The notes under the pieces are model-generated. The model searched no databases, was not told where the DNA came from, and saw nothing but the letters and a program-made list of their open reading frames with translations. A stretch of 63,193 nucleotides of DNA, the filler included, from Nemertoderma westbladi (lineage: Eukaryota; Animalia; Xenacoelomorpha): assembly GCA_032718475.1 (NCBI GenBank). It is 5 parts of 5 records of this genome, joined end to end, with 100 filler letters (N's around TTAATTAATTAA, not from the genome) between each part and the next. Parts side by side here need not be neighbours in the genome. Positions count along the whole stretch, not along the records: positions 1 to 22,443 come from JAUCBJ010008021.1; 4 more parts are not named here. The stretch is one strand, 5' to 3'. Positions within the stretch are counted from its first letter, which is position 1. Every line of letters begins with the position of its first letter. Below, one piece after another: positions 2,451 to 37,613 of this stretch. Both the position numbers and the translations under genes were made by a program.

Positions 2451-4221
2451 TATTTGAACAATCTGAGCAGACTTATACGTCTTCAGCTCAATATTAACTT
2501 ACTAGGAAATAAAACCGACAGAAATAAGTAAGCTCCAAAAGAAACAAGGGGTGTACAGTCCCTAATCTCTTAAACAGCCTACCGGTATACAATAATCAAA
2601 ATCGAATAATACTAAATGTACTTGTACAGCAGTACCGGTACCGGTGATGACAGTTAGGCCTACTGACCTACAGAAGTACCGGTTCAGTTTTACCAGTCAC
2701 TACGGTATTTTGCAACCTTATTGCCTACTGCAATAAGATTATAAACTGTTACTGTTCGCGCTTTTGAAGACCTTTAGCAGTTTAACCTGCCAAAATTTAT
2801 ATGTCTTTTAGTTAATTAAAACACCTTTAACATACGACAATATTTTATGCTAATACACAAAACATTAGCCGAAGTCAGCCCATGCGCGATCATTCACCCG
2901 ATGGATCTACACCCGGGAGGCTGAATTCGGATGCTTAAATTTTATTATTGCAGTGTAAGGTTGCAGCGTAAACTTACTGTATTATTCGACAGATCGTTAA
3001 TAATTAATTCCTGACAGATATTATTGGCTTTCGGGAAATATTAACAGTTCCTTTAGGACATGGCGCTCTATCTATTTAAACAGAACTAAGACTTATACTA
3101 AACGCAACGATACTGCTTATGATTAAAGTATAAAGCGTATTCTTTAGGAAATACTTTGTTACCAATCACAATCATGCACACTATTCTGCCGACCGTCAGT
3201 ATATTTGATCACACATAAAGAGAGCAGTAATTGACTCATGTAGGGTCTGCTAAATAACATTAGATTCAATACACACCACATTAATATAAATCGCAATTGT
3301 TATATATAGCCCGCCTCTCTAACCTGTAGTGTATCAAGAAAATTGGGAAATTTGAGTGATTTATCCGTATTATCCAAAGAGCAATATTTCCATCAACAAA
3401 TAGGTACAATTAATAACTGACGGTAAATAACAGTACAAACAATATGATTAATAGTGAGTTAATTAGATCAGATAAGTCGATTGCGTTAGGTTAGTTTAGT
3501 TAGGTAACAGTTTATACTTTCGATAATTTAAGCAGTTTTATTAGAGTTCTTCCCAAAAAGCCGGTGTTATGGCGAAAATGGGAACACAACAACAGAATCA
3601 TATAAAATCATATGACTACTACCACTATACGAGTATACCAAAAACCCTTATTCCCCGAAGCTCCCATCCAACACAGAGGATGAGCAGTGAGATAGGAAAT
3701 TCAGTTCAGTAGCGCTGGGATAGGTCGAAATCAACACCCACGCAAATTCTATTGGCCGACACGGACAGCAAGGCTTAGGCAACCTCCCTACACTGGTTGG
3801 CCGATTAAACTGAGCCCAGATATCTCCACACAGCACATCAGCCAATAAGCTGGTAGCTTGCACTATTTTAGTTATAAATCCCTTTGAGAGTATTCTAGCG
3901 ACCGGGGGGGAACTGGCCAGCAAAGGCAAACGTATCAGTTATCCCACAAAAGCTTTTACAACAGGATAAGGGGATTATATAGTAGTTACATGTAAATACT
4001 ACAATACCAACTCCTATCCTGGTTTTTACTTGGAATTTGTATAATTTGAGTATTTTCTCTGTGTAGTGTGATAGGCCTAACCAATACTTCAATACTTTAG
4101 TGTTTAGTTGGAGTTATATTACTGTACCGGCTGACCGGTATTAGGTAACGGTGGTGGTGCAATACCATATAGATAGGCATGTAGGCTATCGCTGTATCGC
4201 TATACAAATAATAAAAATATT

Positions 4222-5894
4222 ATGTTTATGGTTCGTAATTATAAGCGCAAGTTGGGCAGTAGACGATATAAAGATTACTCTACCGAAACATTAAACAAAG
4301 CTCTTGATGATGTAAAAAAAGGCGATTCTATTCGAGGGGTATCGAAGACTTATGGAATTTCAATTGGAACACTGTGGAATAAACTTAACGGTCAACATCA
4401 ATCAACAGTTGGTCACCCTGTTGCATTAACAGCTGGAGATGAAAAATGTATTGTGGACGCTATTGGAGTATTAGTGGACTGGAAGAAACCACTGAGTATT
4501 CCCGAAGTTCAAATTTTAGTTCATAACTTTCTTGAGAAGAGGGATATTAAGGTCAAATGTTTTAAACAAAACTACCCAGGTATTGAATGGATTCTCTCCT
4601 TTATGAAACGTAATGGTCTTCGTGCTCGCAATGCAGCGAATATCAAAACAAGCAGGGCTGAAATATCAGCAGAAACCTTAAACAGTTTTTATGATGAACT
4701 ATAGAGAAAGAAATTGAAGATGTTCCTGCAAGCAACATCTGCAACTATGACGAAACAGGCTTTGCAAATGATCCTGGTGAAAAGCGTGTTATATGTCGCC
4801 GAGGTCACAAACGTGTTGAACGATCCATTGACCATTCTAAAGATAATACATATGTTATGTACAGTGGTTGTGCAGATGGCGCAGTAAATCCTGTGATGAT
4901 TGTTTACAAAGCGAAGTTTATGTACGAAAGATGGAAATCTGGTGGTCCCAATGGGGCTTGTTATTCAATGACTGAGTCAGGATGGTTTGACATGATAAGA
5001 TTCGAGGAGTGGTTCGAATGGGTTTATAAACCATCCATAATGAATCTTAATGGGAAAAAGATTCTGATAGGTGACAACTTAGGATCACACTTGTCCATTG
5101 ATGTTGTCCGTGCATGTAAAGAGCTCAATGTTCGATTCATCCCACTACCTGGCAATACAACACATATTCTGCAACCACTTGATGTGGCATGTTTTCGATC
5201 TACCAAGATAGCATGGCGAAATATCCTTTCTAACTGGAGAAAAGAGACACGTACAAAGGGTTCTATTCCAAAGCCTCAAATTCCAGCCCTAATGAAACGA
5301 CTGGCTGATAAACTTAGCGATGCATTCCCATTAAATTTAATAAAGGGATTTGAAGCCACAGGATTATATCCACCGAACAGAGAAAAAGGTCTTTGTCATA
5401 TTCCATCAGCTCCAAGTGATACATCCACAAATGCTATAAATTCTGTAGTATTAGAACTTCTTCAATAACAACACACTTCATCAGCATCAACACGGAAGCA
5501 GCGGGGCAAGAAGGTAACACCAGGAAAGGGAATTGAAGAAGAAGACCTTCTGCCAGCTGCAGGTGATGGAGAGACAGGAAACCAGAAGAAGAGGAGAAAG
5601 GTTGTTACTGACGTTCATGTAGGTGAAACTGATGTTGATAAACCATCAACTTCGGGAGGTCAAAGGGGTGTTCAAATAGCAGATACGCCATCGAATTCAA
5701 CAGGTTCACGTCGTCAGTTGCGGCAACGGATACATAGTGAAGGATGGAGCTGTGGATCATGTGGATGTGATTGGAGCGATTTAGATATCAGTGATATATG
5801 GGTGATGTGTGACCTGTGTGAAACATGGTTTTGTGGAGAGTGTGTCCCACCTGCTTCATATAAAGAAGATGATCCGTTTTTCTGTTGCTCATAA
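4222..5894 (+). mobile_element. pogo/Tigger-family DDE_1 transposase pseudogene (psq HTH, CENP-B HTH, DDD triad, C-terminal PHD finger)
   Basis: N-terminal YSTETLNKALDDVKKG..SIRGVSKTYGISIGTL; catalytic NYDETGF (~4743, after frameshift at ~4704), IGDNLGSH, QPLDVACF; stop at 5466-5468, then in-frame CGSC...WVMCDLCETWFCGEC...FFCCS*. TIRs not identified. Confidence 0.9.
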
Positions 5895-7170: not shown

Positions 7171-8319
7171 GTATTGTACCGTAGTTCTTTCAATCTTAAG
7201 AGAACCAAATAATCAACCAAAATTCAATAAAGTTAATTTGTTCTTAAGTCACTTTTTTTGTCAAAGTCGTTAACAAGTTTGACAAAAAATAACACTTTGT
7301 TGTTAATATAAAAAGTTATGTTGAATTAAATTTCAAAGTAATTTCCATGACATTGATTTTTTATACTAGCTAGTCTTTTCTACTTTTTTATAAATGTTAT
7401 GAACACGTGTTAGCTATCAATTTTGATAAATAATTTTGTTCCAGAACACTTTTTATGTATATGAGTTATTATTACCATAATGAACAAAATCTATAATAAG
7501 TGAAGCGAGATAAAGGAATCATGATTGGGGTGATTTATATTGAGTCAATGCAATAATGAAGATGGTCTGGAGGCGCTACCACCCAGTGGAAAAGTGCTGG
7601 TTATGTGAAGATCATTATATTTACATTATATAGAACTTAAAAGTAATGGATATATTTGTAGATTGGAGGGCGGGGGGGGGGGGGGGGGGGGGTGTTGGCT
7701 GGAGAACCACGTTGATTGACACAATGATTATTCAATAATTATACGAGAGATACTGAAGGCCTACTTGTTTTTTGTTTATTTCTTTTTCCATATATTTAAT
7801 TTTATACTGTATGTCTACCGGCACCTCTTACTGTTTATCACAGTGTATGAAACCAAACAAAACATTGTTGTATAAGTAGAATATATAATATATACAGAGT
7901 ACTGAAGTAGTTAGCTATGTAGAGTTTTTGAACAAACTTCAGATTCTTTCTAAACTTTTGACGGACTACATACGTACCAAGTTTCGTTTAATTTCATCGA
8001 GGAATAACCGAGTTATTAGCGATCAAAAATTTACGACGACGACGACAGACGACGACGACAGACAACTCGCCAATGGCACCCATATGCTAAGGCTTCGCTC
8101 AGTTCGTGGCTCGCCCCACATAACAACTACGTTGGTCGATAATGTTACAATTTCTCCTAGCACTACAGTAGTATATAGTAATCAGAATGAATAATTTTAC
8201 GAACAAATAAATTGAGTGAGAGAAAATAAAGCCACAGACACTTTGCAACAAGTGTATACTGTACTGTTGGTACATTTTAGCACTGGGAAATTACTCCAGA
8301 GGAAACTTTTCATTTTTAT

Positions 8320-11220
8320 AAAAAAAATAATATTTTTGGACCTCATGAATATGCAAAAGGTCAAAAAATATATATTATCGGTAAAACTACTACGTTGGTA
8401 TTGCAACCATCTGTATACTGGTAAGCTCTCAAGTAATTATCCAGTAATCGAAGCCATTTGAATACCGCACCTACAAAGATGATATAGATAAAAATGCAGC
8501 CCCATTAATATTCAATAAATGATTAATTTATGAACGGTGCAGCCATTTTACTTCTTTTACACTGCATTATAGAGGCCAAATGATTTATTTAACATTGCAG
8601 CAATTTGTAAGTTAAATTGTATAGATTGGCTATGAATTTGCAGCCAAAAGACAACTTCTTCATAAACGCTAGGTACAGGAAATATAACTTAGATATTGTA
8701 CCGTGTAGTTCATTGAATCAGTAAATTCTATAAAGTTTTTTTTTACATATTGTAAATTAATAGGAGGGACATTGTTTCTGAAGTGAAATAGTAAGCTGAG
8801 TTAAAATCTGTTGCCACAATTTTTCAAGAGTTTCCCGCACTCAAGAATCACTATACACATTAATGACAAATTCACCATAAACATTGGCAAATCACTGGTG
8901 ATTCCTATAGGCCTACACTAACAACCACAGTACTGTATGTTAGGCGCTAAAGTTACTATTTCTCCCAGCCCTAGTACAGTAATCAGTATAGCGAAATGAC
9001 TCCATAGGAATCTTTTCTGTTTTAAAAAATGTAATATTTTTGGACCTCATGAGTATGCAAAAGGTCAAAAAATATATATTATCGGTAAAACTACTACGTT
9101 GGTATTGCAACCATCTGTATACTGGTAAGCTCTCAAGTAATTATCCAGTAATCGAAGCCATTTGTATACCGCACCTACAAAGATGATATAGATAAAAATG
9201 CAGCCACATTAATATTCAATAAATGATTAATTTATGAACGGTGCAGCCAATTTACTTATTTTACACTGCATTGTAGAGGCCAAGTGATTTATTTAAGATT
9301 GCAGCAATTAGTATGTTAAATTGTATAGAATTGCCTAGGAATTTGCAGCCAAAAGAAAACTTCATCAGAAACGACGCTAGGTACAGGAAATATAACTTAG
9401 ATATTGTACCGTAGTTCTTTGAAACAGTGAAATCTATAAAGTTTTTTTACATGTTGTAAATTAATAGGAGGGAAATTGTTTCTGAAGTGAAATACGGATA
9501 GTTCTAAATTAGGAAAACACTAGTAAAACGGTAAAACACTAGGAAAACATAAGAAAAGTACTGTAAAACACCCGGAAAACAGTGGAAATATTGATCAGCA
9601 GGAAATTTAACACATGTACTTCTCTGAATTGACAATCCTAAATGTACTCCTCGCATAGCACCCCTTAAGTAATCACCGTAAAACATAGGGAAAACACTAT
9701 AAAAACACTATAAACCTTCCGGAAAACAGTGAAAAAATTGATCAGCATTAAATTTTACCTATATGCTGCAAAAAAATAAATTGAAAGAGTCTAATACTGC
9801 CCAGAAAGCTTGTTGCCAGGCAACCAAAGAACTGTAACCAATCAGCATACGGTGTAGTATCAGTACAGCAGTACTATCGATCCTTGTTTTACCGGTCAGT
9901 TGGTAGAGGCGCAAAGTACCAGTATCGCTGTATTCAGGTAGGCCTATTACCTGATTACAGATTACAGTATTAGTGCTGTAGTGTATTCCAGTATTCAGAT
10001 ATTGCAGTATTGTAAGGGTTAGTTAAAGCTGTAAATATTTCTATATTTAGTAGCTGAGTTAGACCGGTAAGCATTACAGTATTAAGACAGCCTGGCAGCC
10101 TGGTTACAGATATAGTGCCATAGCCATGGGACATTACAGCATTACATTACATTACAGCATTACACTACTGCACTACAGCACTATTACTGTAATCTGTAAT
10201 CAGGTAATAGGCCTACCAGAATACAGCAATACTGGTACTTTGCGCCTCTACCCCTCTACCAACTGACCGGTAAAACAAGGATAGTACTGCTGTACTGATA
10301 CTGCACCGTATGCTGATTGGTTACAGTTCTTTGGGTGCCTGGCAACAAGCTTCCTGGGCAGTATTAGACTCTTTCAATTTATTTTTTTGCAGCATATAGG
10401 TAAAATTTAATGCTGATAAATTTTTTCACTGTTTTCCGGAAGGTTTATAGTGTTTTTATAGTGTTTTCCCTATGTTTTACGGTGATTACTTAAGGGGTGC
10501 TATGCGAGGAGTACATTTAGGATTGTCAATTCAGAGAAGTACATGTGTTTTACAGTACTCTTCCTATGTTTTCCTATTGTTTTACTGTTTTACTAGTGTT
10601 TTCCTAATTTAGAATCATCCGTGAAATACAGAAGTAAGCTGAGTTCAAATATGTCTTCACAATTTTTCTGAAGTTTCCCCGCACTCAAGAATCAGTACAT
10701 TAATGACAAAATCACCATGAACATTGGCTAATCAATCACTGATGCTCCTTATACACTAACACCACAGTATGTTGGGAGCTACAGTTACTATGAACAATGA
10801 AGATATTGAAAATGTGCAGCCAATTTACTTTTCACTAAATTATAAATTTAATGAACGTTGCAGCCATTTTACTTCTTATACAATGTATAATATAATAATA
10901 TATAATAATAATATACATGGCATTGTATGGTCAGTAATAGGCCAACTCGAATATTCAAAATTGCAGCTATTTGTATGTTAATAGTATAAAGCATGGCTCA
11001 TAAATTTGCAGCAAAATGACACTTCGTTAAAAATCTAGGTACAGCAAGATACAGTAGTATTGTAGATACATACTATTCATAGGCTTACAATAAAGTTAAA
11101 GTTTATCTTCAATATTGTCAAATATAGGAGGTAATACAGTAGAAGTATGGATATTATGATGTGAAATACTAAGCTGAGTCTAAATATGTTGTCAGCATTC
11201 TTATAAGGTTCCCGTACTAA
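8320..11220. repeat. Three diverging copies of a ~0.6-0.7 kb unit rich in TGCAGCCA; copy 2 interrupted by the foldback element
   Basis: 8330.. and 9030.. are near-identical (tttttggacctcatga.tatgcaaaaggtcaaaaaatatatattatcgg...); third diverged copy ~10800-11220; motif continues to ~11960. Confidence 0.85.
9496..10620. mobile_element. Non-autonomous Mutator/MULE-type foldback element with long TIRs and 9-bp TSD
   Basis: GTGAAATAC at 9487-9495 and 10621-10629; ends GGATAGTTCTAAATTAGGAAAACAC / GTGTTTTCCTAATTTAGAATCATCC; inverted arms extend ~470 bp; paralogous empty site at ~8783 (gtgaaatagtaagctgag). Confidence 0.9.
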
Positions 11221-12206
11221 CACTGATTAAAAATAAAAATCGAAATTAAATCACCATTACAAGAAAAACCCCATAATAAAATCTTACATTGGGCGAAGGT
11301 GTGCCTCTACATAGATTATTGATTGTTAGGCAGAGCGATCAACATTGGCAAACAATCAATATTCTTTAAAACGTTAAAATGGACATCGGAAAATAGATGA
11401 GGAAATTCCCAAGAAGCAAAAATTTCAGGTCGCTGGTGTACTGTACTATGTTATTATTATCGTTTTTGACTGACAGAAATAATGACAGTCCCTCAATCAT
11501 TATTATAATTAACATCGGAAATGATAACCCGACCAGGAAAACCCAGATATAAATAATCTTAGTTAGGACTTACAATATGGATACACAACACATCTACTGT
11601 AGGCCCCTCCTCCAGTATTCATATCTTGGTTCTCTCATAACAGTAATACCTAATGCAGCACATACATTAGTTCAAGATTTTATGCAGCCATTGTTGTGAA
11701 AATAAACGGCAGCCAATAAGCCATTATTTATACAAGAATATCTATATAATTCAGCAAAATATCTATATAATTCACCAAAATGTATATATTGAGACAATAA
11801 TTGACCCAAAAATTTAAATTGCAGCCACTGTAGTAACCAGGCTTTTTGCAGCCAAAAGAATGCGGATGTTTTAGAAAGACCATATGGCTACATTGCAGCC
11901 AAAATACAACCTGCCGCAGCCACGGTGTCACTTTGTATATATCATGATGCAACCAATAAGCCATTATTCATATAATCCATTGACACCACATGCTGCATTG
12001 TACATCTATATATATATATATATATATATAGATATATATATCGGTATATAATTTACAGTAAAAAATCTCCACCACCAAACAACAACAATAAATTTCACAC
12101 TCTCTAATTATATTTTACATCAAAAACCCACCACCAAACAATAATAAATTATTAACCAGTTTGTTGAATATAGTATAATATATATGAAATTTAAACGGAG
12201 AACACA

Positions 12207-12661
12207 TTAATGTACTGTACATTTACCAGTGTAGAAGCAGCAAACAACAACAATATTATTTATTCTGACTTTACAGTTATTGAATATTTCGGGGTCGTAT
12301 GAAATTTCTAGTTTAACATTATCAAATATAACATAAAACCCGATATTGTTTATAAGTAACCTATAGATTACGGTGTCGATACTAAAAATATAAGTACACA
12401 AATTGATAGATTTAAAAATCAATTTAATGTTTGTTTTTTGAATATATGCTTTTTCACTTTATTAAAATTATATTTTCTACCGAGAATTGTTATTCGTCCA
12501 TTTGTAAACATTAATATGGTTGCACCAAATACCTTATATATAAACTGATTAGGTTTGAGTACAATTTTACCTGTCAATTGATTTTTTAATTCTTTTAAAT
12601 TAAGTCCATAAATGATCTGCTTACAACTTATATTTTTATTTACTATTTGATAATTCATCAT
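12207..12661 (-). pseudogene. TATA-binding protein (TBP)-like gene, frameshifted at ~12420, overlapping the end of pPolB
   Basis: Repeat 1 YQIVN..LNLKEL..ATILMFTNGRITILG (TBP: LQNIV..LDLKTI..TTALIFSSGKMVCTG); repeat 2 SYDPEIF...VVVCCFYTGKCTVH (TBP: SYEPELF...VLLIFVSGKVVLTG); order and spacing fit the two-repeat TBP core. Confidence 0.75.
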
Positions 12662-15600
12662 CAACATCATCACCTTTTGGTTCTTCATAAATTGGTATAT
12701 TTGATATTTTTATAGGTTTTTTGAGGTTTGTTTTATAGTGCCCCCAAGGAAGTGATTGATTTTTATTAACCCAATAAAGTTTATCATAAAAGCTACTGAG
12801 TGCAAATTTATTTTGCTTTAAGGTATAAATACGATGTAATTTAGATTGAAATCTGTGTATGTTTTTTTTTATTTCTTCATTTGAGTTATATGCTTTTAAA
12901 TATTCTTCATGTGTAATATTCGTTTCCACAACAGCTCTTGTAATACCTTTTGCTCTACGAATATTTTTGTTATTCCATTCCAAAATTGAATATAATTTTG
13001 GTCTTAAAAATACAGCTTGTTTAATTTCACGTGAGGCTAGTTCATCTTTACAGTAATAAAGTCTCGATTTATTTTTATTACTATAAAGCGGGTGATCCTT
13101 AGGGTAATTGGATGTATCTAAAATATTATTTTTAATTAATGCTTTTAAAAAATTATTCTGCGATGTATTATAGTAACAACCTATTAATAAGTCTATATCT
13201 GATGCAGCAATTTCAATACGGCAGTTTAATTCTTTCTCAATAGGTAGCAATTTATCGTAGTACAGCTCATACATATCCAGTTTAGCCAAATCCAACACTG
13301 CGCTACCAATAAATATAGGCTTATCGAGAGTTACAGAGTCTTTCACTAATAAATGTCCCGATAATGTATTATTGTATATTATAAATTGTTCATGATTAAT
13401 ACGATTCACCAATTGGTCACATTTATCATTGCTATTTGCGATACGAAAGTTACATCGATCCCGTATCTTTTCTATTGACTTACCGAATAAAGAGTTATTA
13501 AGCAGCTTCGCGACAGCCGTTTCAATGTAACTTTTTGCTAGTCGCCTTTGATTAATATTAAAATCTATGTAATTTTTAAATACAAATTCTTGTTGAAAAG
13601 AATATAATTTATGTAGTTTAGTAACAATTAATCCATGTTTTATATAAAATTTTAACAGTTTCAAATGTAAATGATAAAATTCTTTATCAAATTGCGTCAG
13701 CAAGAGTTTTGGTGTAGGCATCTTATATTTACTGGAGGTACCTCTTTGTATCGATAAGTTATTAAATTGTTCCCTCATATAAGGTGAAAGCATTGATTCA
13801 TTTATACTTAAATGCTCTGGGGCTAACGGTAATTGTAATGTTTGATCGTGAATAGCTTTGGGGTAATTTAAATCACATATTAAAAAATATCCAGTAGATC
13901 CGTCATTGTCTAAATCTACCAAGTACTCGATTAGTTTTTCTGGAATTGCATTCTCTAAATGTTTAATACTTACTTCTTTGAATTGTGAGGTGGGTAGTTT
14001 TTTACTTAAATTCCCAGAATATAAAGAGTTGAAATCAATATTAAAAATATGGCATTCTTCCTTAGTAGAATCATATGTACTTGTTTCGGGTATATTTGAT
14101 TCTATATAATGCTTTCGACAAAATGAAACACCACCCCTAATTGATTTTTCAAAATCTCTATATGTCTGATAATCCTTTATTAATTCTATTTTACATTTAT
14201 TATATTTTAGTTCGCAATCATTGGTAAATGACGCAATACTACAGTAAAAAACCACTTCTAAATCGTAATTTTGTTTACAAACATTCCTAAAATTCTCAAA
14301 TATATCAGCAAGCAAACAAACATCGAGTTTTAAATAGGCCAAAAGATAATCTTTGAGATTCACTCAGTCGAATTCTACCCATGATAATCCCACAAACCTA
14401 TAATCTTCAATTGTGCATGTTTTTTGACTTAAGTTACTAAAAAAATTATTTATAGATGGTAAACCAGTATCATTAAATTTATTTATATCTGTCAAGTACT
14501 CGTATGGAAATACTCCTTTCCGATTAATTGTTGAGTTATTCAAGTTTGGATAAAAATATTTCATTTCTTGTAGAGTAATAGGTAAAATTGAGCTTATATC
14601 ATGACTCGCTACATCCTTTGTTTAACACTCAACTAAATTACTTAAAGAAAAGCTTAAAAATTGATATGTGTCTAAGACACGTAACTCAATTTTTTTAGAA
14701 GTGTTTTTAATTGGGATAAATCCACTCAGTGAAATATATCGTTCTGTATTTCTCGGTATAACCTTTATATCCCAATCCGTGTATTTCTTATCTCTAAATC
14801 CGGTTTGTAATATACAATGTATATCATAATTATTGGAATTGTGCCCGCAAAGTACATACAGGTATCGTTTCAATGATGAACTTCGGTTACAACTATTACA
14901 GGCTGCCGCAATATATTTACCTGTAATATGTGAATGATGTCTGTTTTTCCCTACATTATTATTTAAAGTAACATTACAATAGAAACAAAATTTTGCCTGT
15001 TCAAAATTTACAAAATCAATATTAGTAAATAACATAGTTTTATGAGTGTATATTTCTGACCAACAACATAATTCAGTTAAATCAGTATATAATGAATCTA
15101 AGAAATCTTGAATACAATTATTATTATTTGACTTTACGAATGTTTTCAAATGACATTTTGGAGGATCAATTAATTCACTATTGGGAACAATTAAATAACT
15201 CACAGCACACGGTATATGCTCCTGTATAAATTGATTATTAACTGAAGGTTGTAAGATACATTCTATATCAAAGTAGGTGACAAACAATAGGGATAAGGTT
15301 CTATCTAAATTTGTAAAACTAATGTGTGTTCTTTTTTTATTAGGTAGTTTCTCTCGTTGACTTCTTCCTTGGTAGCAGACGAGACGGTGTCGATGAAGAA
15401 CTTCCGCTCGAAAAAAATGTCCCAAACACCTTTCACAATATTTCCTATTGTGGATATGAAGAGCTCTCGTATTCAGCAATCGATTCAAGTTAGTTATGCA
15501 AACATAATGATTCAGTTTAGGTACATTGTTATTTTTTACTACAAGTAATATATTTAATAACTCTTTATCAGGTGTAATTTTACTAAACGGTGGTTGTCTT

Positions 15601-16697
15601 AATATAGATACGGGGGTGCGTTTGTTGTCGTTATTCCAACATAGTAAATTAATTATATATTTAAAATTTTGTTTTTCAAAAAGTTTAATCATTAACTGCC
15701 ACTCTGTTGGATAATCATTTTTCCCGTTGTCAAAAATGAAATGACTCATATAATTTTTGTACGACGAAGTATGGTTTTTGTTGTTTTTCACTTTGCTACC
15801 AAATTTTGCGGTTATAATAGCCCATTTGAAACAGTCATTATCAACCGTTTGTATATTTATTGTACATTTTTTAGCTGATAGAGCCTTAGGTAATTCCATA
15901 TATCCATGCCCCTTATATAGTAACGACCTACACTTAGATTCAGCTAATTTAATTTCAACCCTTAATAAAAATTTAACGCGCCACCCTGAGCCACATGTGT
16001 TAAAGATGGCTATTTTTTGTAATATATTTTCCACCACATACTCAAACCATATGTCAAAACTTTGTGATGAATCTACAGTATTATTAGCACCACCGGAAGA
16101 ATTAAAATAAAAGGTTTCCAATTGCTCGCCTTCTGAAAAATGTGATCTGTACATTAATACATTTAGACCTAACCACAGTCTAAGAACATTCATTTCTTTC
16201 AATCTATCTAATATTAACTGAAGAATATTACCTCGAATTTGCGTTAATGCTGTTTCTACATCGGGATTTCTTCATCTAGAAGTTGGGAGGTCGTGGACAT
16301 AAATTTCAAGACGATTATCGTGAGCTTCTTGTTCCCGCGTAAAAATTGTTGCGCATGTACCAAGAGCCACCCTTAAGTTTTTTCTAGATAATATATTTTT
16401 ATGTTGTGGAGATTTATGCTTTCTTGTGTAATAACATTTCAAGTGACAGTCGTGTCGTAAATAATTCTCATATGTATACTCTTTATTACAGGTAGAACAA
16501 GTCAATTGATAGGTACGGAACTCCATTTCTTTACAACCTGTAGTTGATTCATGTCATTTACAAATTTCGCTGCATGAAGTCACAACATGACACTTAAAAC
16601 AAGAATAACCTTCAAAATGTGACCGTAGGTAGCGTAAATAATTATGTCTAGTTACATTCATATGACAGAATGAACAACATATTGTTATTTTATCCAT
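12636..16697 (-). pseudogene. Protein-primed family B DNA polymerase (Polinton/Maverick type), 1354 codons, four in-frame stops
   Basis: Track ORFs 16272-16526, 14622-16202, 14364-14564 and 12636-14363 plus an upstream ATG at 16697 are all one frame; stops at 16554, 16272, 14622, 14364. Motifs: N-terminal Cys/His fingers, GSGW, DNDCFKWAI, YCERCL, ExoI YFDIEC, endonuclease VII-like RHHSHITGKYIAAACNSCN, ExoII HNSNNYD, RKGVFPYEY, ExoIII YLKLDVCLLADIFENFR, DFNSLY, KLLNNSLFGK, SDIDL (usual DTDS), LRPKLYS, RAKGI. Confidence 0.96.
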
Positions 16698-16884
16698 GTT
16701 AAAGTTTGTTTAGATTAATAATAATAATAAAATATCACCAAAGATTAAAATAAAATGAAATGAAATGTTATTGACTATATCTAAACATTTATATGCTAGC
16801 GAGTGAAATAATTTTAAATCAATCACCAATCACCAATCGCTTATGGGTATTGGAAACCTCAAAGAGTTTAACTTATGATCAGGT

Positions 16885-17949
16885 TTACATGTTAGAATAA
16901 TAATCTGGTTTCCATGGAGAATTAGTAACTGGATCTACTGGAACTAGGTTACCGGCAACTTTCTGTTTCTTTGCAGGTGATGCGTTGGTAAATTTACTTG
17001 ATGATCTTGGCTTCCGAGGTAATATTTCAGGAAAGACCTGTTGCGGTTGAGAGCAACTCTCTTCAACATCCGGATTAGGTGATGGGATCTCTATGAATGC
17101 TTTAGGTTTATCCAAAAGGACAAAACCATCTACATTGGCTTCAGTAAGAGAAACACCATCCATAGCCTCTTTGAGAAAACTAATATGGGTTTTATCCTTC
17201 AAGTAATGCAACTCAATAGAATTTCCACCTGCTCCTTCTTCAGTAGAATTATCGGTGTTGGTGATAATAATTTTTTTATTATTGGTTTTAATCATTTTGA
17301 GACGGTCTGATAATTGAATGATATTTTTATCAAAAAGATGCTTGTCTGTTTCATCGATTTGGGTGTCCCACTCTCGCAACAAAATGGTTAGTTCCTGATT
17401 TGACAAATTGAAACCCGTATAATAGTTAAAACCAACACTATCAGCGTATCTGAGGCTGATTTTCCATAAGCCAACATAGTTGGTTCCTTTAAAAGCTGTT
17501 ACAAATCCAATAAACTCTGGATTTGATAATTCAATGTAGAATTGATCGCTAATAATCTCTAGCGGTGGAGAGAGAAATTGCAATAATTTCCCTCTGTATT
17601 GAATTAGAACTTCAGTAAAAGCTTTGTTGAGAACTTTACATTTGCCTTGTTTCTAAACGTAAACATCACCCGACGTGGGGTTGATAGAAATATTCAAATT
17701 TCCTCGCGCAAAACGAAGAGCAGCATATATCCTACCTGGTATAATTGCTGGTCTGGATTGATGTTGGTTGTTGTTGGTTGTTTCTAGAATGTCTAGCAAA
17801 TAGCGGGTATCTTGATGGGAAAAACAAATTGATTCATTGTCCTCCTGAGATTCCACAATAAAATACTTGCTGTGAACGACGGTACAAGTATATTTATTGT
17901 AAGTAAATTTCCAGCTATTTGTTGCTCCAGTTTTTTGCGTTAAGGCCAT
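16885..17949 (-). pseudogene. ~354-codon ORF with one internal TAG; contains a PC4/Sub1-like ssDNA-binding domain
   Basis: ORFs 17653-17949 and 16885-17583 are in one frame separated only by TAG at 17653-17655; FVTAFKGTNYVGLWK...GFNLSNQELTILLREWDTQIDE resembles PC4 VSVRDFKGKVLIDIRE...[21 protein letters not shown]; basic PAKKQK near the C-terminus. Confidence 0.6.
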
Positions 17950-18043
17950 AATAATAATAAATACGAAAAATATTACAAGTGATAAATTTTAAACCGTATT
18001 GCTGTAATAAATTGACACCATAGTTCTCACTCTAAAGTTGTGA

Positions 18044-18202
18044 TGGTCGGAAAACAACACCTGAGAAAAATGATACTGATTCCGACATTGGGTATCAATC
18101 AAAAAACGAAAATCGAGCAAGACACGTAGCTCGATTTTCGTTTTTTGATCGATACCCAATGTCGGAATCAGTATCATTTTATGAGGTGTTGTTTTCCGAC
18201 CA
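18044..18202. repeat. Near-perfect inverted repeat, ~75-bp arms, 10-nt loop
   Basis: tggtcggaaaacaacacct..aaaatgatactgattccgacattgggtatc.atcaaaaaacgaaaatcgagc [aagacacgta] gctcgattttcgttttttgat.gatacccaatgtcggaatcagtatcatttt..aggtgttgttttccgacca; weaker outer arms ~18004-18042 / 18250-18300. Confidence 0.95.
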
Positions 18203-18893
18203 ACGAATATACAACGAGTAAGATAATGATGAAATTATTAAGGAAATAACACAATTTCAGAGTGAGAACAAAAAAATTAGATATGGTATCAATATATTAC
18301 CATGAAGATTACAAGTGATGAATTTTAATAAAAACATTCAGTTATATATAATTTCTGAATATGTGATGTGGCATAATCAACGTTGAAGAGATGGGATGTG
18401 GCATAATCAACGACGAATAAGAAAAGAGATGGGATGCAATATGGATGAATGGTTAGTTGGTTGCGTGGATAGGAAATACGTGAACGAATATGAATCATTG
18501 GGTTGTGCGTAATAATAATCAATAATTATAATAAAAACGCGCAGTATAATGTTAGTAGGCTTTCAATATGCCGCAGATGCTGAGGGTTAGGTTAGGTTGA
18601 GTAACTATGGAAATGTGAGAACGTGTACGTGACGCGTGCCGAAATTTCATGTATCATACTGGTTGGTTGGTTGGTTGGTTTGGTGACAGCAGCCGAGTAG
18701 CTCTAGCGGTGGGTAAATCATTGAGTTGGCAATCGATATAATATAATAGCACGGCGTTGCGTGGTATATGCGTGGTGTGCGTAGATGGCCATGTCGTCCG
18801 TGACTGGCTCTATCATCGTTGTCATCATATACAGTATGTGGTAGCAAGGCGAAAAGGGGAGTAACCGGAGGGCTAGGCAAGCAAGCATCACCG

Positions 18894-18958
18894 TTGGTTG
18901 GTTGGTTGGTTGGTTGGTTGGTTGGTTGGTTGGTTGGTTGGTTGGTTGGTTGGTTGGT
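18894..18958. repeat. (TTGG)n microsatellite; shorter run at 18660-18683 and a 2x ~90-bp duplication at ~19008-19186 lie nearby
   Basis: Directly visible. Confidence 0.95.
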
Positions 18959-19310
18959 AGGTAACAGCAGTCGAGTAGCGATGGGTTGGGTATGTGGGGG
19001 CTAGCCATGCATCGCGAGGTTAGGCTACGCGAAGATGAATATCGATGATTGGTTGATGCAACGACGCGAATCAATACTGATGGTTGGTAACAGCAGTCGA
19101 GTAAGGCGTGCATCGCTAGGTTAGGCTACGCGTAGATGAATATCGATGATTGGTTGATGGCAACGACGCGAATCAATACTGATGGTGGCAGATGGTCATT
19201 AAACACCGGAATTTGGCACCGGAATTTGGCATTTTGAATAGTCCTCCGAGATATCTCCCATAGCCCAAGCTAGGGAGGACTATGGTGAGGAACCCTCTTC
19301 CTCTACTACT

Positions 19311-21750
19311 TACCCTATCGCCTACACTATCTCTCCCAGTATGGCCTATAGTATGTGCAGTAAGGCTTACAGTATGTCCTGCAGTCTGCCTGTGTCCTTC
19401 CGTATCAAAGTTTAATCTTCTCGAATATTCCGAGAAGTCCTCCCCGCAACTACCATATTCTCGATCGGCAGCTACTTTCCAACGGGAAGTTTCCCTCCGA
19501 TCCCCTCTCCTGTCTTCTTCCTCGTACCAGTACCCTCTCCCGGTGGGTGGTATATTTCGCCAGGTTATGTTTCTCCGGGGCTATGGCAATCTCCCGGAGT
19601 ATGACCCCAACGGCTCTCTTTCTCCACCCAGAAAGGATCGACGGTTTACTGTCCATCCTTTCTCTCTGGTTGCTCGTTGCAACACTCCCTCGTCCCTCCT
19701 CGCTTCTTTTGATTTTAGCGTAATGTCCTCCCTAATGAGATCTCATTTCGACCTCCCGGATGAACTCCACTGTTCTTCTTCCGTCTTCCGAGTGGGCTCA
19801 ACGTTTCCTCATTTGGCCACTTACGGCACCAACGTCCCTCCCTCTGCCCGGTTGGACGGCCCCGTGGATATTCGCAGTCCCCCTACTGTCCTCTGTGGTT
19901 GGGTGCCACGGTTCACTTAACTCACCGTGCGCATTATCTGCCGATGCTCGAGGGGCGTTTGCTGCCCCCCCCCCCTTTCCTCCATTGTTGGATGCCACGG
20001 TTCAATTAACTCACCGTGAGCACTATCTGCCAACACTCGTGGGGTGTTTTCTGCCCCCCCTCTCTTGTCATTAATTGGTTGTGGTGGGGTGCCCGTAGCC
20101 CCCCCACCCATCACCTCTTATTTCGCCCCCATGTCCATGTTACCCTCGAATCGACATGTTAGTTCTATCCTCACTGAGTTTGTTAACCCATGTTCCTCTC
20201 TGCGCAACTGCGTGGCCTTGTAGTCCCTCACTAGGCAAATTGCCTCTTTCCCCTACGTTTATATTAATTGTACCGCCATTAGCCCTGCGCGGTTGATTTG
20301 TTACGTTATTATTTAGGTTATTTTGATTAATTCCGCCGGGGTTATTTATTATATTGTTATCTGGCGTATCTGGATTATTATTTAAATTATTTAAATTATT
20401 TTGTTCACCAATATTTATATTATTATTTAAATTATTTTGTGCACAAATATTAGAATTATTACCGAGTAAAATATTATCTCCTGTAAAGAAAGTTTCGTTA
20501 GTATTAGGGTTATCTATTACGGTACTATTAATATTAAGGTTCTCGTTAAACGTATTGTTATTACCACCCCCGCCCGTCCGGTCACACCAGTCTTGGGTCT
20601 GTCGTCTGGGATCAAGTGTCAAGTAATATCAAGTATCGAGTACCTGTAAGTGGAGTATTAACAAAGGTTTCCATCATCCCTGGTTCCTCATAAATACTCC
20701 CCGAACCAGCCTTGCTCTCTGATAAACCCATTTTTGCCAGTTCTAATTTCATGTCTGTCTTGCCTGATATTGCATGAACCCCCTCAACCGGGTATGCATA
20801 TCATCCCGCATACGTTTACCCGCCCTCTCTCTTTCTCTATCCTCTCTGACACTCTGATCGGCTAATTCTGCCTCACTCGCCTCCCGCACTCTACGCTCAT
20901 TCACCTCTCTAGCCTCCCGCTCTCTGCCCTCGTTCACCTCTCTCGCCTCCCGCTCTTTGCGCTCGTTTTCTTCTCTCGCCTCCCGCTCTTTGCGCTCGTT
21001 TTCCTCTCTCGCCTCCCGCTCTTTGCGCTCGTTTTCCACTCTCGCCTCACGCTCCTTGCGCTCATTCATTTCTCTCTCCTCCCGCTCTCTATAGTTTCTC
21101 GCCACCCTCTCGGCCCTCTCTTTACACTCTCTCGCTGATTCCTTCTCCCTCTCTAGTAACGCGGTCCCCTCATCCAGCTGTCTCTCTAGCTCCTTTTGAT
21201 CCAGCGCCACGATATCTAATTGACACGCCAGATCTATCTTAAACACCCTTCTTGCTTTTGCGGAGGATGTAGTGGACTTTTCGGTTGTGACGGACTCCCG
21301 TTGCCTGCCCGTCCTACTAATTTTCCCGCATTTACTGGGATTCCTACTAACCGACGATACCGAATCTTCGGGGTTAACCTCGGATTCGCTGTCGTGCGGG
21401 TCCGCCCATCCCACTAACTTAATCCCCCTCGCATCTACTAGATTAGGCCCTATGTACACTACAGTGGCCTCCACCACCTCGGATCGCCACAATTCGAACA
21501 GTTCTGAGGCGACCCCCCTCGCCCTCTCACTTGCTAGTTCACCCTGCCCAAATCGGACTAGATAGCGAAAGTGTTTGTTGCACTCATCTAGCCTTTGGTA
21601 CAACTCGGGGATGAAAATCTGAAATTTTGCATGATTTAAACCCCTTGAGTAACGTCCACACTCCGCATCACCCACAGGGCATTCAGACTTCTTCCCGAAT
21701 TAGCTCAGAAACAAGGTGGGCTGAAACCGTAAAGGCCTGTTTTTTAATGA
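19311..21750 (-). mobile_element. BEL/Pao LTR retrotransposon, 5' (gag N-terminal) portion, disrupted
   Basis: EVNPEDSVSSVSR...STTSSAKARR followed by a coiled-coil (REENERKEREA)n is typical of BEL/Pao polyprotein N-termini; then Asn-rich low-complexity sequence with stops; no pol visible. Confidence 0.65.
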
Positions 21751-22443
21751 AATAATATGTCGGTTCCTTAGTAGTTGAAAGTTACTGATTAAACTAATAT
21801 ATAGCAATTTCTAAATAAATATTTATTTTTGATAAATTATATCCAGTTAAATATTGAAGTAATTTTACTCCTACACAATTATTATCAAGTAAAAATTGTC
21901 GATGAATTTAAGTTACTGATAAATAATAGCCAATCATATGAGTAGATTGATAAACGATTTCGAAAAATATGTTACTTACTGATATTTAATATTCTGTTAA
22001 TTCTTGATAAATTAAAGTTTCTTATAAATAAATATAACATACTGATAAATAATACGCACTTAATCATTGAAGTATATAAATTATTCATTTGTAATTTCAA
22101 TGTATTTCTCGATAAATTGAAGGTACTGAATAATATAATGAATGTGAAATAATATAGTGAAAGATAAATATGTTTGTGAAGAAATAAGTAATATTCTCTC
22201 TGCTACATACTTTCCTTTCTGATAAATAGTTATTTAGTCTGATATAAATATTATAACTCGGTAATATATTACTGATATCAATGTTGAAGGATATTTATGT
22301 TTCTTAAGGGGGGGGGGGGGGGGGGGGGGGGGGTACACCATTTTCGGACAACTCTTCGATTTATCCCTCTCAGCGTTTCAAAATTGTTTTGTTTTGGCTA
22401 AAATTTGGCATATAGGTGCCTAAGATGTTATTCTACATAAGTA

Positions 22444-22543
22444 NNNNNNNNNNNNNNNNNNNNNNNNNNNNNNNNNNNNNNNNNNNNTTAATTAATTAAN
22501 NNNNNNNNNNNNNNNNNNNNNNNNNNNNNNNNNNNNNNNNNNN
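22444..22543. other. Artificial contig linker
   Basis: 44 N + TTAATTAATTAA (stops in all six frames) + 44 N. Confidence 0.97.
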
Positions 22544-30013: not shown

Positions 30014-33000
30014 CTACTACTACTAGGTCGAGCGAACTCGGACAGTGGAAATGAGATCCTTCCAGGCTTCCCGATTCTCCATAGTTGTCGCAATTTCGTT
30101 TCTCCCAAGTTCAGTATCCCTTTCAAGTTGATCTATATATGTTATGGCAGGTCGTCCACGACTACGCTTTCCATGAGTTGGTTGCCAGAGAAGTAGATCT
30201 GGTATGACCTCGTCTTTACTTCGCCAGCAGTGCCCACTGAATCTTAATCTGCGTTCACGGAGGGTGGTTGATACAGGTGGTATTGTACCATAAAGCTCGG
30301 CGTTTGTCATGTGTTGTCTCCAGCTGATGTTTAGGGCTGCCCTTAGTAGTCTTGTGTAGCAACCATCAATTCGTTGTTCAAGTGATTTAGTCAGTGTCCA
30401 GGTCTCACCCCCGTATAAAAATACACTTTCCACTGTGGCTCGAAAGAACTTAGTCTTCAGGTGCCTGGAGAGATCTGATTTCCAGATGGTATCCATTTTT
30501 GATAGAGCTACCCAAGCCTTTGCTTTCCTAACTTCTATGTCCTTTTTGCTACTCTCTATCCATGATCCAAGGTACTGGAAGTCATCGACCTTCCTTAGTT
30601 GATTATTATCAATGGTTGTCAAGTTTCCATCAACATTAAAGGTCATGAATTCGGTCTTGGTAGCATTTATATGCAATCCAACCTCCTTAGCAGCCCTCTC
30701 CACTTTATTTAGTAGAAGCTGTGCATCTGCTAGCGTATTAGAGAGCAGGGCGATGTCATCCGCAAAGTCGGTGTCTGTGACTGTAGTTGCCGGATATCTA
30801 CTACTTCTGCGTTCTTGAAGTGTGAATCCCAGATCTTCACCCTTTGTGGCCGTCCTCATTGCGTTATCCAGCACAATTACAAATAGTAATGGTGCTAATG
30901 TGTCACCTTGCAGTACGCCAGCCAGGATTGAGAAAAACTCAGTTTCACCATCTGGTGAGAGTACCTGCGCTTCTGTGTCACAATATAACAATCCAATGCC
31001 AGCAACAATTACTTCTGGTATTCCATAAGCTCTTAGGATTTCAAGCATTTTACCTCTATGGATGGAGTCGAATGCCTTCTTGAAGTCCACAAAAGTCATG
31101 ACTGCGGGGAGATTCTTTGACTTAATTCCTTCAATCAGTCTCCGTAGTGCAAGTATCTGAGCTATTGTTGATCTACTTGGTCGAAATCCGTTTTGGCTCT
31201 TACGCAGTAGTTTCTCTATGTGAGGCCTAATCCTATATAGAATCATTTTATTGTATATTTTGGCAGCTACCACAAGCAGACAGATCCCACGATAGTTTGT
31301 TGGTATGCCGAGGTCTCCTTTCTTGGGGAGAGGCTTTAGTTGACCTTTAGTCCAAATTGGTGGTGGCTTTTCCCCTTTTAACATCCGGTTGCAAACATTC
31401 AATAATGGTCTATTTAGCACTCCGGTTTTCCATACCTCCGCTGGGATTTCATCTAATCCACTCGCTTTATTATTGGACATGCTTTTAATGCTTCTTTGGA
31501 GTTCGGCAGGTGTGAAGTCCCCTGTTTCTATAGGTAGTGTCTTGTCATATATTTTCCTTGTAGGGCTGACCTCGATGTTTGGTGGCTGCCCAAGCAAGTT
31601 GCTGAAGTGATTTTTCCACTTCCCAACACGTTCTTCAGGACTATCGGCTTTGAGGCGCCCCTTTGCACAACTTTTCCGACCAGATACCTCATTTACAGTT
31701 TGCCAGGTAAGTCTTGATTGTTGCTGTATGTGAGCAGTTGTAATTGCTTCAGTTTTATCCTGTATGTACTTTTCCTGGCTGATGTTGTAGGCCAATTTAA
31801 GATCGTCCTTAGCTTTCTCAACCTTGTTAATGTTTTCGGTTGTTGGTTGTTCGGTTTTAACTTTGTAGGCTATCTTAAGATCTTCTCTCTTACAAGTAAC
31901 CTCAGAGTTTTGCCATGGCACATACTGTTTTCGTTTAGGTTTCTGGGGGATATGCCTCTTAGCTGATTCCTTGTGGGCTGTTATTATATTCTGGTATATT
32001 GAATCGGTGGATTGGTCTTCATCCATTGACTGAAGTGCTTCAAAGCGGTTTTGAACTTCTACTGTATAAGCATCCTTTACAGCATTGTCAGTTCTGAGTT
32101 TCTCCCAGTCATAGTTGATTTGCTTGCTTGTCCTGGGTTTGCTGGCTCTCAAACTGAGTCTGATCTCTGCAGTCACAATTCTGTGGTCCGAACCAATTAG
32201 GTTGAACGAGCTGTATGCCTCGCAGTTGATCATGCTATTTCTCCACTTTTTGTTTATAAGGATGTAATCCAGTTGTGCTTTGGTTCCATTAGGGTATTGA
32301 AAGGTCCATAGCTTCCCCTTACTCTTTTCGAATGTGTTGTTTGTTGGTATCAATTCACATTCTTCCATTAGGTCTAAAAGTAAGTACCCATTTCTGTTAG
32401 AACTGGTGTTATAGGTGTAACCCTTGATGTCTTCTGGGCCAATTTGCGCATTCAGGTCACCAGCAAATAATTGCGTTTCGGGATGTCCTTAATAAGTCCA
32501 GTCAGTTCTTCATAAAACTTGACTGCTTGTTCTGTTGTCCGTTAACTGTTGTCTTGGGATTCCCATCAAATGTTGCGATCATAACCCTGGAATTTATAGA
32601 TTCGATGTTGTTTAGGGTCTTAAGTGCAAATGGGCTTAGCAGAATTCCTACTCCACCAATTGATGCATTGGCCGAGTTTCTTACTGCTGAGCTTGTTACT
32701 AACGTCCATCCATTTCCAATGTCATTGTACTTCATGGCAGTGTCTTCATGACAAATCCGATGTTCTTGGATGCAGATGATGTCGATGTTATATTCCATTG
32801 CCAGAGCGACCATGTCACCATGTTTGCTCTGTGCTTTCAGCGTGCGTGCGTTCATTGTAGCAATCTTTAGTGTCTTTTTACATTTCAACAGGTTGGTTCT
32901 TCTTTCTTCTCTGTCTTCTGTTCCAGTAGCCAATTTATCGACCCCAGCCTGGTGTACCACTGAGGGACGCGGTCCTTGTTGACCCGGGCGACGACCGAGC

Positions 33001-35030: not shown

Positions 35031-36609
35031 CTGGAAAATATTTATTTACAATATATAAGTTAATACTTTCAGTATTCTTGTAACAAAACTAATGTGACTT
35101 GCGTGCGTGTATCACTGGATTACTGGGTCGGTGAATTAATATTTAAATTTACTATTTATTAAAATTACTATATATTTAACCAGAAAACTACCTAAGATTG
35201 TTTTATCTCAAAACCACAAGGGCAGAGAATAAAATGGCAATTATTTTACACGAAAATGCAACTTTTATCTGATAGACTGCCACCCAGGCCTATAAGGAGA
35301 CTGTAACTATAATAATAACGATAATAATCGGTTTCAAGTTAATGTAGTGGAATGCGATGAAATACATAACTCTTAATTTCTTGTGGAATTAAATTTGAAA
35401 AACTCAAATCAACAAAAAAATATTAATCCGAGAATCTAACCTCACTGTTTAAAGTTACCATGCAAATTATCTATCTATCTAAAATTGGCAAGCTGCATTA
35501 CAGCTACATTAAGAATGCTATGCCATCTGATCGACAATATTGTGCTGATTCAACTTCTATCCCCCATTACTTTCGCGAGATAATCCGCATCTCCATGAGA
35601 CCTCCAAATCCTGCAACCTGCACAGACTGACCGAACACAGACTACACAGACTGACGGCCGGCGAAGATAATGTTAATACCAGCGGAGTAATGCAATATTT
35701 CGAATAAATTATATTTTGAGTTGAAAGAATATGTTTGGCGGTTAAGAAGAAGGTTAAGGCTCACAGCATGAGAATACCTACCTACTGCGTGGGCTAGCAA
35801 TACCCCCTGGTTACCCAACCCATTCGTTTTCTTGCAAATTTAACATTGTATGCTTGTAGGTCTTCAAGTGGTCTATCATACAACCATCACTACTGTACCT
35901 CTCCGGTTTGAGAGAAAAATTACTCCTTTAAATTTAAAATAAGCAAACTCTGCTACTAACTTCATTGCATTTTAACCAATGAAGAAGGAACCACTATTAT
36001 CCTGAAGATTTGTAATAACTTCTTCAAATTATATAATTGCTTCATCAGTTTTTAGAGAAATATTCATCACCTTGTTTATGGATTCCAAAGGCAAAAGCCT
36101 CCGATCATGTAACTCCACTATACCATGTTGCAATGTTTGATAAGGACTGGAAAAGTAACATCCACAAGATACTGAATAATCCAAACATCCAGGTTTTGTT
36201 ATTGTAATTGTCCATATAGTTTTCTATTAACAGGTTCGAGATTCCTATGACAGAATCAGATAGGGTCATATCAAAACATCTTGCCACAAGGAGATGTTAT
36301 CCTCTGGTACACAAACTAGCCTTCCACACTGCATTTACAAGCAGATGCACTAAACCATGTATCTGCTTTGCTAATGGAAAGAAGAATCTCCCGAATGCAT
36401 TACCTGATGTATGTTCGCCGTCAGTTGAGAAGTGTGTCTTTGATGATGATTCACCTAAAAGCAGAATGATTCTACTAAGATCGCTCCTGTTTAGAAGGAA
36501 TGAGGATGCCTCCTGGGCCTATCCTGAGAAGATCACCTTCAAATCAAATAGAGGAACACAATATGACTGGGTTTCCCATATGACTGCATGGTGCTGTGGT
36601 GGGGTGCTG

Positions 36610-37613
36610 TTTGAAGTGTTATGGGGCGTCCTCCAAGGAGACACACTTGCACCATTCTTGTTCATTATTGTGGTTGACTATGTTCTACGCATGTCCTTAG
36701 ATCATCATAATGATGATGGGGTGATGATAACTCTACCTACTGGCTCCAGAAGTCGAGGAAATCCTGCCAAGTACCTAACTGATCTAGACTTTGCTGATGA
36801 CTTAGGAGTACTCTCAGAATCATTAGAGGGAGCCCAACGGCTCCTCAGCTCATTAGAACATGCTGCTTCTAGTGTTGGTCTTTTTATTAACTCCAGAAAG
36901 ACCAAAATTCTGACTGTTAACTTTGAAAGTCCTCAGCAAGTCCCTGATCGGATGAGCATAAGCTCAAAGGATGGTATGCTTGAGCATGTGGACGACTTCT
37001 GTTACCTGGGATCATGGATCCGGAAGTCAGGTGAGGACCTTCGAATACGTAAGGGAAAGGCATGGACAGCCTTGAATAGGCTTTCCAGGATTTGGAAATC
37101 ACCGAGAATTAATCGGAAACTTAAGGTCCGATTATTTAGAGCAGCAGTAGTTCCAGTACTCCTCTACGGGAGTCCATGCTGGGCTCTAACTGCTGAGGAC
37201 ACCAAATCTCTGGATGGCACATTCACAAGAATGCTACGCCGGGTTCATTGTGTCAAGTACAATGCACACATCTCCAACCAGACACTATATAACATTGGAG
37301 GTGTCTCATTGGTTCCCCCAAGCTTGACACTAGAACAAAATCGCCTCCGCTTTGCAGGACATTGCTTTCGCCGTGAGGACCAGCCAGTGCATAATCTTGT
37401 ACTTTGGCAGCCTCATGGAGTGAATAAGCATGGTGGACAGCCCATGACTTTCTTGAGACGCATCTTAAAGGACACTGGCCTTAAAGATGCGGATGATCTA
37501 GCAAATGTCATGGGTGATAGGGAGTTGTGGCGGTGCAATTTTGTTGACAAGCCGGCACAGCATTCTTAAAAATGCAGCTGCAATGCAGCATGCCGATCCT
37601 AGTAGTAGTAGTA
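36610..37613 (+). mobile_element. 5'-truncated RTE LINE (family RTE-B)
   Basis: GVLQGDTLAP, LDFADD, FCYLGSWI, RLRFAGHC; near-identical to 60824-61820; (TAG)n tail. Confidence 0.95.

Follow-up and report, generated by a model that had tools for sequence, protein, structure and literature searches.

Nucleocytoviricota mostly encode their own RNA polymerase. Most viral TBPs are argued to pair with a viral TFIIB and to escape N-lobe regulators, and in the available part of the account that describes them Polintons are never mentioned (PMC7221094). In KSHV, ORF24 replaces TBP on TATT late promoters; according to the available sections of PMC12529657, it is a multidomain protein that carries all four intercalating Phe but none of the acidic residues for TFIIB; its contact with Pol II is direct, and five partners are required. 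TBP appears among the legend entries of Fig. 5, a set of MELD-virus maps in the part that deals with non-animal datasets (Starrett et al. 2021, PMC8502044; preprint 10.1101/697771). In the available text of that article the label stands without analysis, and one of its supplements contains neither TBP nor TATA as a whole word.

Text searches gave no mention of TBP or TATA in PMC11161782, 10.64898/2026.10.13.758929 and PMC11131425, nor of TATA or TFIIB in 10.64898/2026.06.19.733378. The literature search, whose scope took in few subscription papers, returned no study of a Polinton TBP family, and the supplements of the preprint 10.1101/697771, with further adintovirus maps, may bear on novelty. 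Within the literature searched, a three-Phe TBP family of Polintons is undescribed.

The locus described here belongs to a window (the whole stretch of DNA that was analysed) of 63,193 nt from Nemertoderma westbladi GCA_032718475.1, composed of five parts joined with filler of N's around a fixed 12-nt linker (22444-22543, 40568-40667, 46145-46244 and 55416-55515), whose order does not imply neighbourhood in the genome; positions 1-22,443 are JAUCBJ010008021.1. It contains a TBP-like gene next to a protein-primed family B DNA polymerase (pPolB) like that of Polintons/Mavericks (adintoviruses, Beta-type PolB) and MELD viruses; its assignment to the Beta type is putative. Like cellular TBPs (PF00352; eukaryotic and archaeal), the TBP-like protein has a two-lobe repeat, the dyad Asn, three intercalating Phe, an acidic C-terminal stirrup and, as modelled, the same fold of lobe 1. 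Unlike them, it is encoded by an intronless, element-borne gene, with the first-lobe stirrup and its Phe changed to K-P and the second-lobe Pro changed to Asn.

With the TBPs of Nucleocytoviricota, as described in the available part of PMC7221094, it shares two virus-encoded lobes, the retention of key Phe and the loss of N-lobe regulator sites. Those viruses mostly encode a cognate TFIIB (PMC7221094), unlike the element as seen here: a scan of the window and of 29 locus proteins showed neither a TFIIB nor an RNA polymerase. A TFIIB gene may lie in the missing part of the element. By analogy with KSHV ORF24 (the beta/gammaherpesvirus vTBP), the working model is a viral TBP fold that would act on a non-canonical late box in a genome that encodes no RNA polymerase. 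Unlike ORF24, as far as the available sections describe it, the family of the window protein is a bare core of ~170 aa with the acidic residues kept; herpesvirus-type vTBPs (ORF24/BcRF1/UL87) are instead large and multidomain, have a Pol II-binding domain and lack the acidic TFIIB residues. The window protein may work like a vTBP, but it does not belong to the herpesvirus family.

The element copy and its DNA polymerase

The window DNA is AT-rich, eukaryotic and full of repeats, with LINE and DDE transposon debris. Contigs from four public runs were aligned to it (9,865 placed); other copies are visible there as short contigs, not as raw reads. A high-copy element family extends approximately over 12050-19500, where the summed contig depth in run X1, which is not equivalent to copy number, is ~4e4-2.8e5 vs 75 at 22056-22400. 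In this alignment the TBP-like gene and pPolB form part of one very high-copy repeat family, and a single contig of run X4 (record 17, 12316-12960) joins the end of pPolB and both TBP halves in another copy. Run X5, which bears a second organism label, contains the same element family, with a similarity of mostly 90-99% in the TBP gene; run X4 has a more divergent variant across this gene.

The pPolB, with an EndoVII-type zinc finger, was recognized from its ORFs and relatives at 12636-16553 (minus strand), in four pieces (ORFs 12639-14363, 14367-14621, 14625-16271 and 16275-16553). For the 575-aa ORF, 642 relatives were retrieved (best E 1.5e-122), of which many have PF03175/PF02945; the window element thus possesses the protein-primed family B polymerase of a Polinton/Maverick. 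Relatives of this polymerase sit in loci with an rve integrase, a packaging ATPase and adenain or PLA2. The copy in the window shows none of the remaining modules: searches for integrase, ATPase, capsid and protease were empty, and no pair of terminal inverted repeats across the element was found. It is therefore probably a truncated Polinton copy. On the left it merges into a TA microsatellite, which the contig alignment skips.

Structure of the TBP-like gene

A hidden TBP-like gene in two ORFs joined across a frameshift had been claimed in the preliminary description, and both halves indeed have PF00352 TBP as their best Pfam match. The first piece (12422-12661, minus strand) comprises the N-terminal lobe and the start of the linker helix (E 0.0047, 17.2 bits); it is read in frame A from the ATG at 12661 to the stop at 12421-12419 (MMNYQIVN...TILMFTNGRITILG). 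The second piece (12207-12458, minus strand) comprises the C-terminal lobe with the acidic stirrup YDPEIF (E 0.011, 15.9 bits) and is read in frame B from 12458 to the stop at 12209-12207 (SYDPEIF...CFYTGKCTVH). Each half singly is below the Pfam TBP cutoff of 22.9 bits.

Since the two frames overlap at 12422-12458 (minus strand), the frameshift lies within this zone (break 1), where the contigs of each of the four runs show length differences against the window copy. Programmed frameshifting was ruled out because of these length differences. The position 12207, at which the range in the preliminary description ends, is a premature stop and a second lesion rather than the natural end (break 2, 12207-12216, minus strand), because in the two runs that reach it (X1 and X3) the majority of the depth differs in length. 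The last strand and helix of the TBP fold are absent from the second piece in comparison with relatives, and extending the protein beyond break 2, in each of three frames, did not raise the profile score. Given several further breaks in pPolB, decay is, on contig evidence, a simpler reading of both breaks than an assembly error of the window.

The likely start, MMNYQIVN, was correctly placed inside the last codons of pPolB: pPolB terminates with TAA at 12638-12636, and its end overlaps the start of the TBP-like gene, whose ATG at 12661 falls 26 nt inside pPolB, at 12636-12661 (minus strand). In-frame ATGs of the TBP-like gene occur at 12688, 12670, 12667, 12661 and 12658. All five ATGs within 12631-12760 share the TBP-like frame, and four of them arise from Asp codons of the acidic tail of pPolB. 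For the pPolB stop and the ATGs 12661 and 12658, no difference is listed among other copies at a 10% threshold. Two TATAAAA boxes in the pPolB tail (12737-12731 and 12714-12708, minus strand; 76 and 53 nt before ATG 12661) represent two of the three minus-strand TATAAAA in 12050-19200. They are the likely promoter of the TBP-like gene, as predicted from their position, and no difference is listed at 12708-12737 among other copies.

Homology and selection

The relatives were found with seed A3, which contains the window halves, so the following profile tests are not fully independent: on a profile of 94 relatives, with the window rows left out, the two halves rank 1 and 2 of 1,017 window ORFs, and the X read-through protein obtains 38.5 bits vs a maximum of 7.9 over 2,000 shuffles and 0.5 for the reversed sequence. 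Unlike these family-profile scores, the Pfam matches of the halves are independent of that seed. The read-through protein, in which the two lobes stand in tandem, reached 45 bits with a 131-sequence profile, and 18 bits on a cellular-type profile vs 43-45 on family profiles. No TBP match was obtained by phmmer of each half against PDB sequences at E 10, and a homologue search with the first half alone yielded none among 53 candidates.

For the selection count, 34 difference rows among copies were considered, from which 3 in the zone of break 1, 3 beyond break 2 and 5 in the pPolB tail were excluded, leaving 23. Third codon positions of the two TBP frames hold 12 of the 13 majority differences (p 1.7e-5), and 16 of 23 when minor variants are added (p 4e-4); in the second piece (12207-12458) all seven majority differences are at third positions. 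Pyrimidine swaps at third positions of the coding strand, always synonymous, account for 8 of the 13. This bias indicates that both TBP frames were translated under purifying selection. In pPolB, 5 of 11 difference rows are at third positions, with no bias, among rows that are a selected 40 of 1,644 and were set aside.

Together with the length differences of other copies at both breaks, the third-position bias identifies a decayed copy of a once-selected gene, not a host retrocopy. The window gene is a real, once-selected and now broken element-borne TBP, and we are highly confident of its identity as such. The divergent, element-encoded TBP anticipated in the preliminary description is thus supported by profile and fold matches, by its grouping with Polinton TBPs and by the X4 contig, with the qualification that the window copy is a pseudogene. 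That description had also named two outcomes that would speak against it, namely the lack of a TBP profile or structure match and a host retrocopy unlinked to pPolB; matches of both kinds were found, and the gene is linked to pPolB in the X4 contig and only 19% identical to eukaryote-type TBP.

Related Polinton loci and the TBP family

The surroundings of related pPolBs were examined in 100 loci (the best 80 of 524 metagenome stretches and 20 viral). An intact TBP is present in three of them, L004, L019 and L046 (Pfam 56.7, 46.8 and 32.6 bits, respectively). Integrase and ATPase accompany it in each, and L019 and L046 also contain a protease and a probable capsid. The TBP-bearing L004 and L019 are the only loci of at least 10 kb among the ten closest pPolBs. 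Their TBP genes and that of L046 are placed 5.5 (L004), 1.0 (L019) and 3.2 kb (L046) downstream of pPolB; the overlap with pPolB, which had been described as virus-like, holds for the window's element family and is not seen in these three loci, and is therefore local to that family. In L019 the TBP gene (7511-8399) has ~290 nt, read in another frame, in common with the ORF that precedes it.

Seeding with L004, L019 and the window halves gave 119 proteins and, in a further search, 358 clusters at 50% identity. This [RK]P TBP family includes the TBPs of two Polinton loci, L004 and L019, and [RK]P and a short loop of the first lobe are common to their type and the window protein. The nearest relative of the window protein is only 31% identical to it, and archaeal and eukaryote-type rows are 15-25% identical. 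In a 49-row tree without animal TBP or TRF, the window protein, a long branch (3.1), joined the L004/L019 clade, and support for the split from archaeal and eukaryote-type rows was 100/93; the phylogenetic placement proposed earlier was obtained within those bounds. The TBP of L046 (8426-8911) is of a different type and falls outside the [RK]P clade, which suggests that Polinton TBPs derive from more than one capture.

A locus search of viral contigs with the window pPolB alone returned no loci. The sole locus from a search with the L004-clade TBP alignment, L113, was rejected as giant-virus-like and not a Polinton; its eukaryote-type TBP is at 9908-10513 of a 29.5-kb contig. Archaeal-type TBPs were observed in several viral contig records in the range L101-L111.

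Conserved residues and fold

Yeast TBP residue numbers (F99, F116, F190, F207, E186, E188 and N69) were mapped onto the family columns through the L113 protein. The TFIIB residues of TBP are printed as E184 and E188 in the available part of PMC12529657. Residues were counted in 131 full-length representatives, drawn from 145 new deep-search matches without known genomic context. Phe is kept at the F116 equivalent in all 131, at F190 in 128 and at F207 in 130; E188 is kept in 127, E/D186 in 121 and the Asn of N69 in 114. R/K predominates in the F99 column (74/131), where F is outside the six commonest residues, and P follows in 124/131.

The window protein has N, K-P, F, D, E, F and F at the N69, F99-P, F116, E186, E188, F190 and F207-type positions. 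The reported retention of intercalating Phe therefore applies to three of the four, that of the first lobe being absent; the first-lobe stirrup is replaced by K-P here and by [RK]P across the 358-cluster family. The protein thus departs from the canonical cellular TBP, with four intercalating Phe and two stirrups, and retains the acidic TFIIB-binding residues of the C-terminal stirrup as D and E. The second-lobe Pro (P in 109/131 representatives) is Asn in the window, with no variant listed in other copies. Five residues of the first piece, N8, L22, P37, F52 and G55, are invariant in a 57-row alignment.

The model of lobe 1, guided by a TBP-family alignment, has pLDDT 79.6. In Foldseek, as the preliminary description had advised, every listed row among ranks 1-29 was a TBP (best E 0.036, none below 0.001). 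With VIA, in which Z under 8 is not decisive, TBPs gave Z 7.9, 7.6 and 7.2 (rmsd 3.4-3.5, 71 residues aligned) and the best non-TBP Z 5.7. The modelled lobe 1 thus has the fold of a TBP lobe. The intact L004 TBP was modelled as a full saddle (pLDDT 93.3), and comparison of this model with large-virus TBPs in Foldseek gave 39 BFVD matches at E <=0.001.

Promoter words in related loci

Promoters were compared in 25 loci of at least 10 kb and at least 8 genes, by scoring canonical TATA[AT]A within 70 nt of a gene. Of the 42 genes in the three TBP loci, 5 have it upstream, vs 131 of 262 in the 22 TBP-less loci, a contrast that, counted per locus, has p 0.022 (p 0.012 vs 11 AT-matched loci) and rests on three TBP loci. 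Four TBP-less loci (L020, L030, L077 and L079), which may be incomplete, are equally TATA-poor.

In L004, 7 of the 12 CATAAAC words are located 10-90 nt before an ATG (p 1.5e-8; ~2.5e-4 corrected for all 7-mers). These words (11226-19004) precede the genes for PLA2, ATPase, integrase and a probable minor capsid, and none precedes pPolB, KilA-N or TBP. The best word of L019 was TTAAGC (5/14, p 9e-5), which fails correction for 4,096 words, and L046 has no significant upstream word. The best words of L004 and L019 were equalled in 2 of 60 random draws. In the element fragment of the window, CATAAAC, TTAAGC and TAAGA have 0, 1 and 4 minus-strand matches, all inside pPolB and marking no gene starts.

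Proposed function

The gene is considered a twice-broken divergent TBP gene of a high-copy Polinton-type element, whose intact protein was, in our moderately held opinion, the element's own late-gene initiation factor. Evidence from the relatives inclines slightly towards a role at late promoters, and the best reading is that TBP would be swapped for late genes on host Pol II with host TFIIB. The gene would be transcribed early, with host TBP acting at both TATAAAA boxes of the pPolB tail, and the protein would then bind DNA through the kept Asn and three Phe. Without the first-lobe stirrup and Phe, and in the window protein without the second-lobe Pro as well, it would have an altered sequence preference and escape host N-lobe regulators. 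Host TFIIB would be recruited by the kept acidic stirrup. Genes behind the element's own box would be switched on only once the TBP-like protein had been made; the predicted target is a non-standard TATA-like box before late genes (packaging, capsid and integrase), at which host RNA polymerase II is likely recruited. The copy in the window cannot perform any of these steps.

The same features might serve a general activator, one that acts at ordinary TATA boxes to increase the transcription of every element gene, with no private late box, for instance in cells with little host TBP or with another factor in its place. The retained DNA-face residues and acidic stirrup agree with such a general effect, as do the canonical TATAAAA words upstream of the TBP-like gene itself, which would allow positive feedback, and the absence of a private word in L046. 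It is nevertheless unlikely, because canonical TATA is less frequent, not more, in loci with a TBP, and the family as a whole has lost one intercalating Phe, which suggests that the target has changed.

Near-invariance of the acidic residues on the TFIIB side (E188 equivalent 127/131), with one Phe lost, would also suit a decoy or repressor that titrates host TFIIB or other TBP partners, or occupies host promoters, and so lowers host transcription. A pure protein decoy would not need the three Phe and dyad Asn that are equally conserved, host shut-off would presumably be of little gain to a high-copy resident element, and CATAAAC marks element genes in L004, all of which makes this quite improbable. 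Host factors act at adenovirus origins, and the protein could by this parallel bend DNA at the element termini to help protein-primed initiation in replication or integration. The tight linkage and overlap with pPolB in the window's element family would be in keeping with that, but the overlap is absent from L004, L019 and L046 and the TFIIB stirrup is conserved, so the probability assigned to it is lower still. Of the three roles suggested in the preliminary description, promoter use has gained support, from relatives, and binding of termini and action as a decoy have not. Capture of a host TBP/TRF as a retrocopy, or a resemblance by chance, in either case without a role for the element, for which the sub-cutoff scores of each half, the broken copy and a tree without animal TBP or TRF might be cited, is largely refuted and very improbable in view of the 19% identity to eukaryote-type TBP, the lack of a PDB match by phmmer, the 18 bits on the cellular-type profile vs 43-45 on family profiles, the derived [RK]P first lobe common to Polinton TBPs and the third-position bias.

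As an extension of the late-gene reading, it is tentatively proposed, at somewhat less than even confidence, that the large family of minimal three-Phe TBPs is a one-protein late-gene switch of Polintons, in which only the TBP of the host pre-initiation complex is swapped, host TFIIB and Pol II are kept and an element-specific box is read. Under the same proposal, the lineage of the window, with Pro in lobe 1 and not in lobe 2 (the reverse of eukaryotic TBP), would read another word or orientation. If true, a viral temporal cascade would exist in elements long treated as transposons. How Polintons time capsid and packaging genes without an RNA polymerase bears on their status as true viruses. 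If they encode a TBP that matches a box of their own, a simple, direct test would need just one small protein and one short word. The family would also supply natural altered-specificity TBPs, useful to separate the contributions of each Phe, the stirrup and the lobe-2 Pro. The window copy adds a deep, very divergent member with past selection, dead and without genes from which its box could be located.

Other features of the window

Upstream of pPolB an ORF in two pieces was called at 16885-17949 (minus strand). By eye only it appeared PC4/SSB-like; this identity was not confirmed, as it has no informative Pfam match and no match to ORFs of related loci. The non-coding part of the element (18044-19231) contains a long hairpin with near-perfect 52-nt arms (18044-18202), a (GTTG)17 run and duplicated units of 78 nt and 13 nt, which may be subterminal repeats. 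The adjoining stretch, 19264-21699, is richer in GC, has a separate, lower depth and no Pfam match, and is probably a different repeat; its ORFs are 19264-19917, 20143-20628 (Asn-rich) and 20752-21699 (33-nt repeat, charged, coiled-coil-like).

Elsewhere, Pfam matches reveal a DDE_1/HTH_psq transposase, itself broken, and several fragments of LINE-type reverse transcriptases at 4177-5894, 30026-32488, 36220-37566, 49460-52060 and 60581-61780. A 451-aa RabGAP-TBC ORF without interruption and a small GTPase-domain ORF are located at 56865-58217 and 41251-41796, respectively (Pfam).
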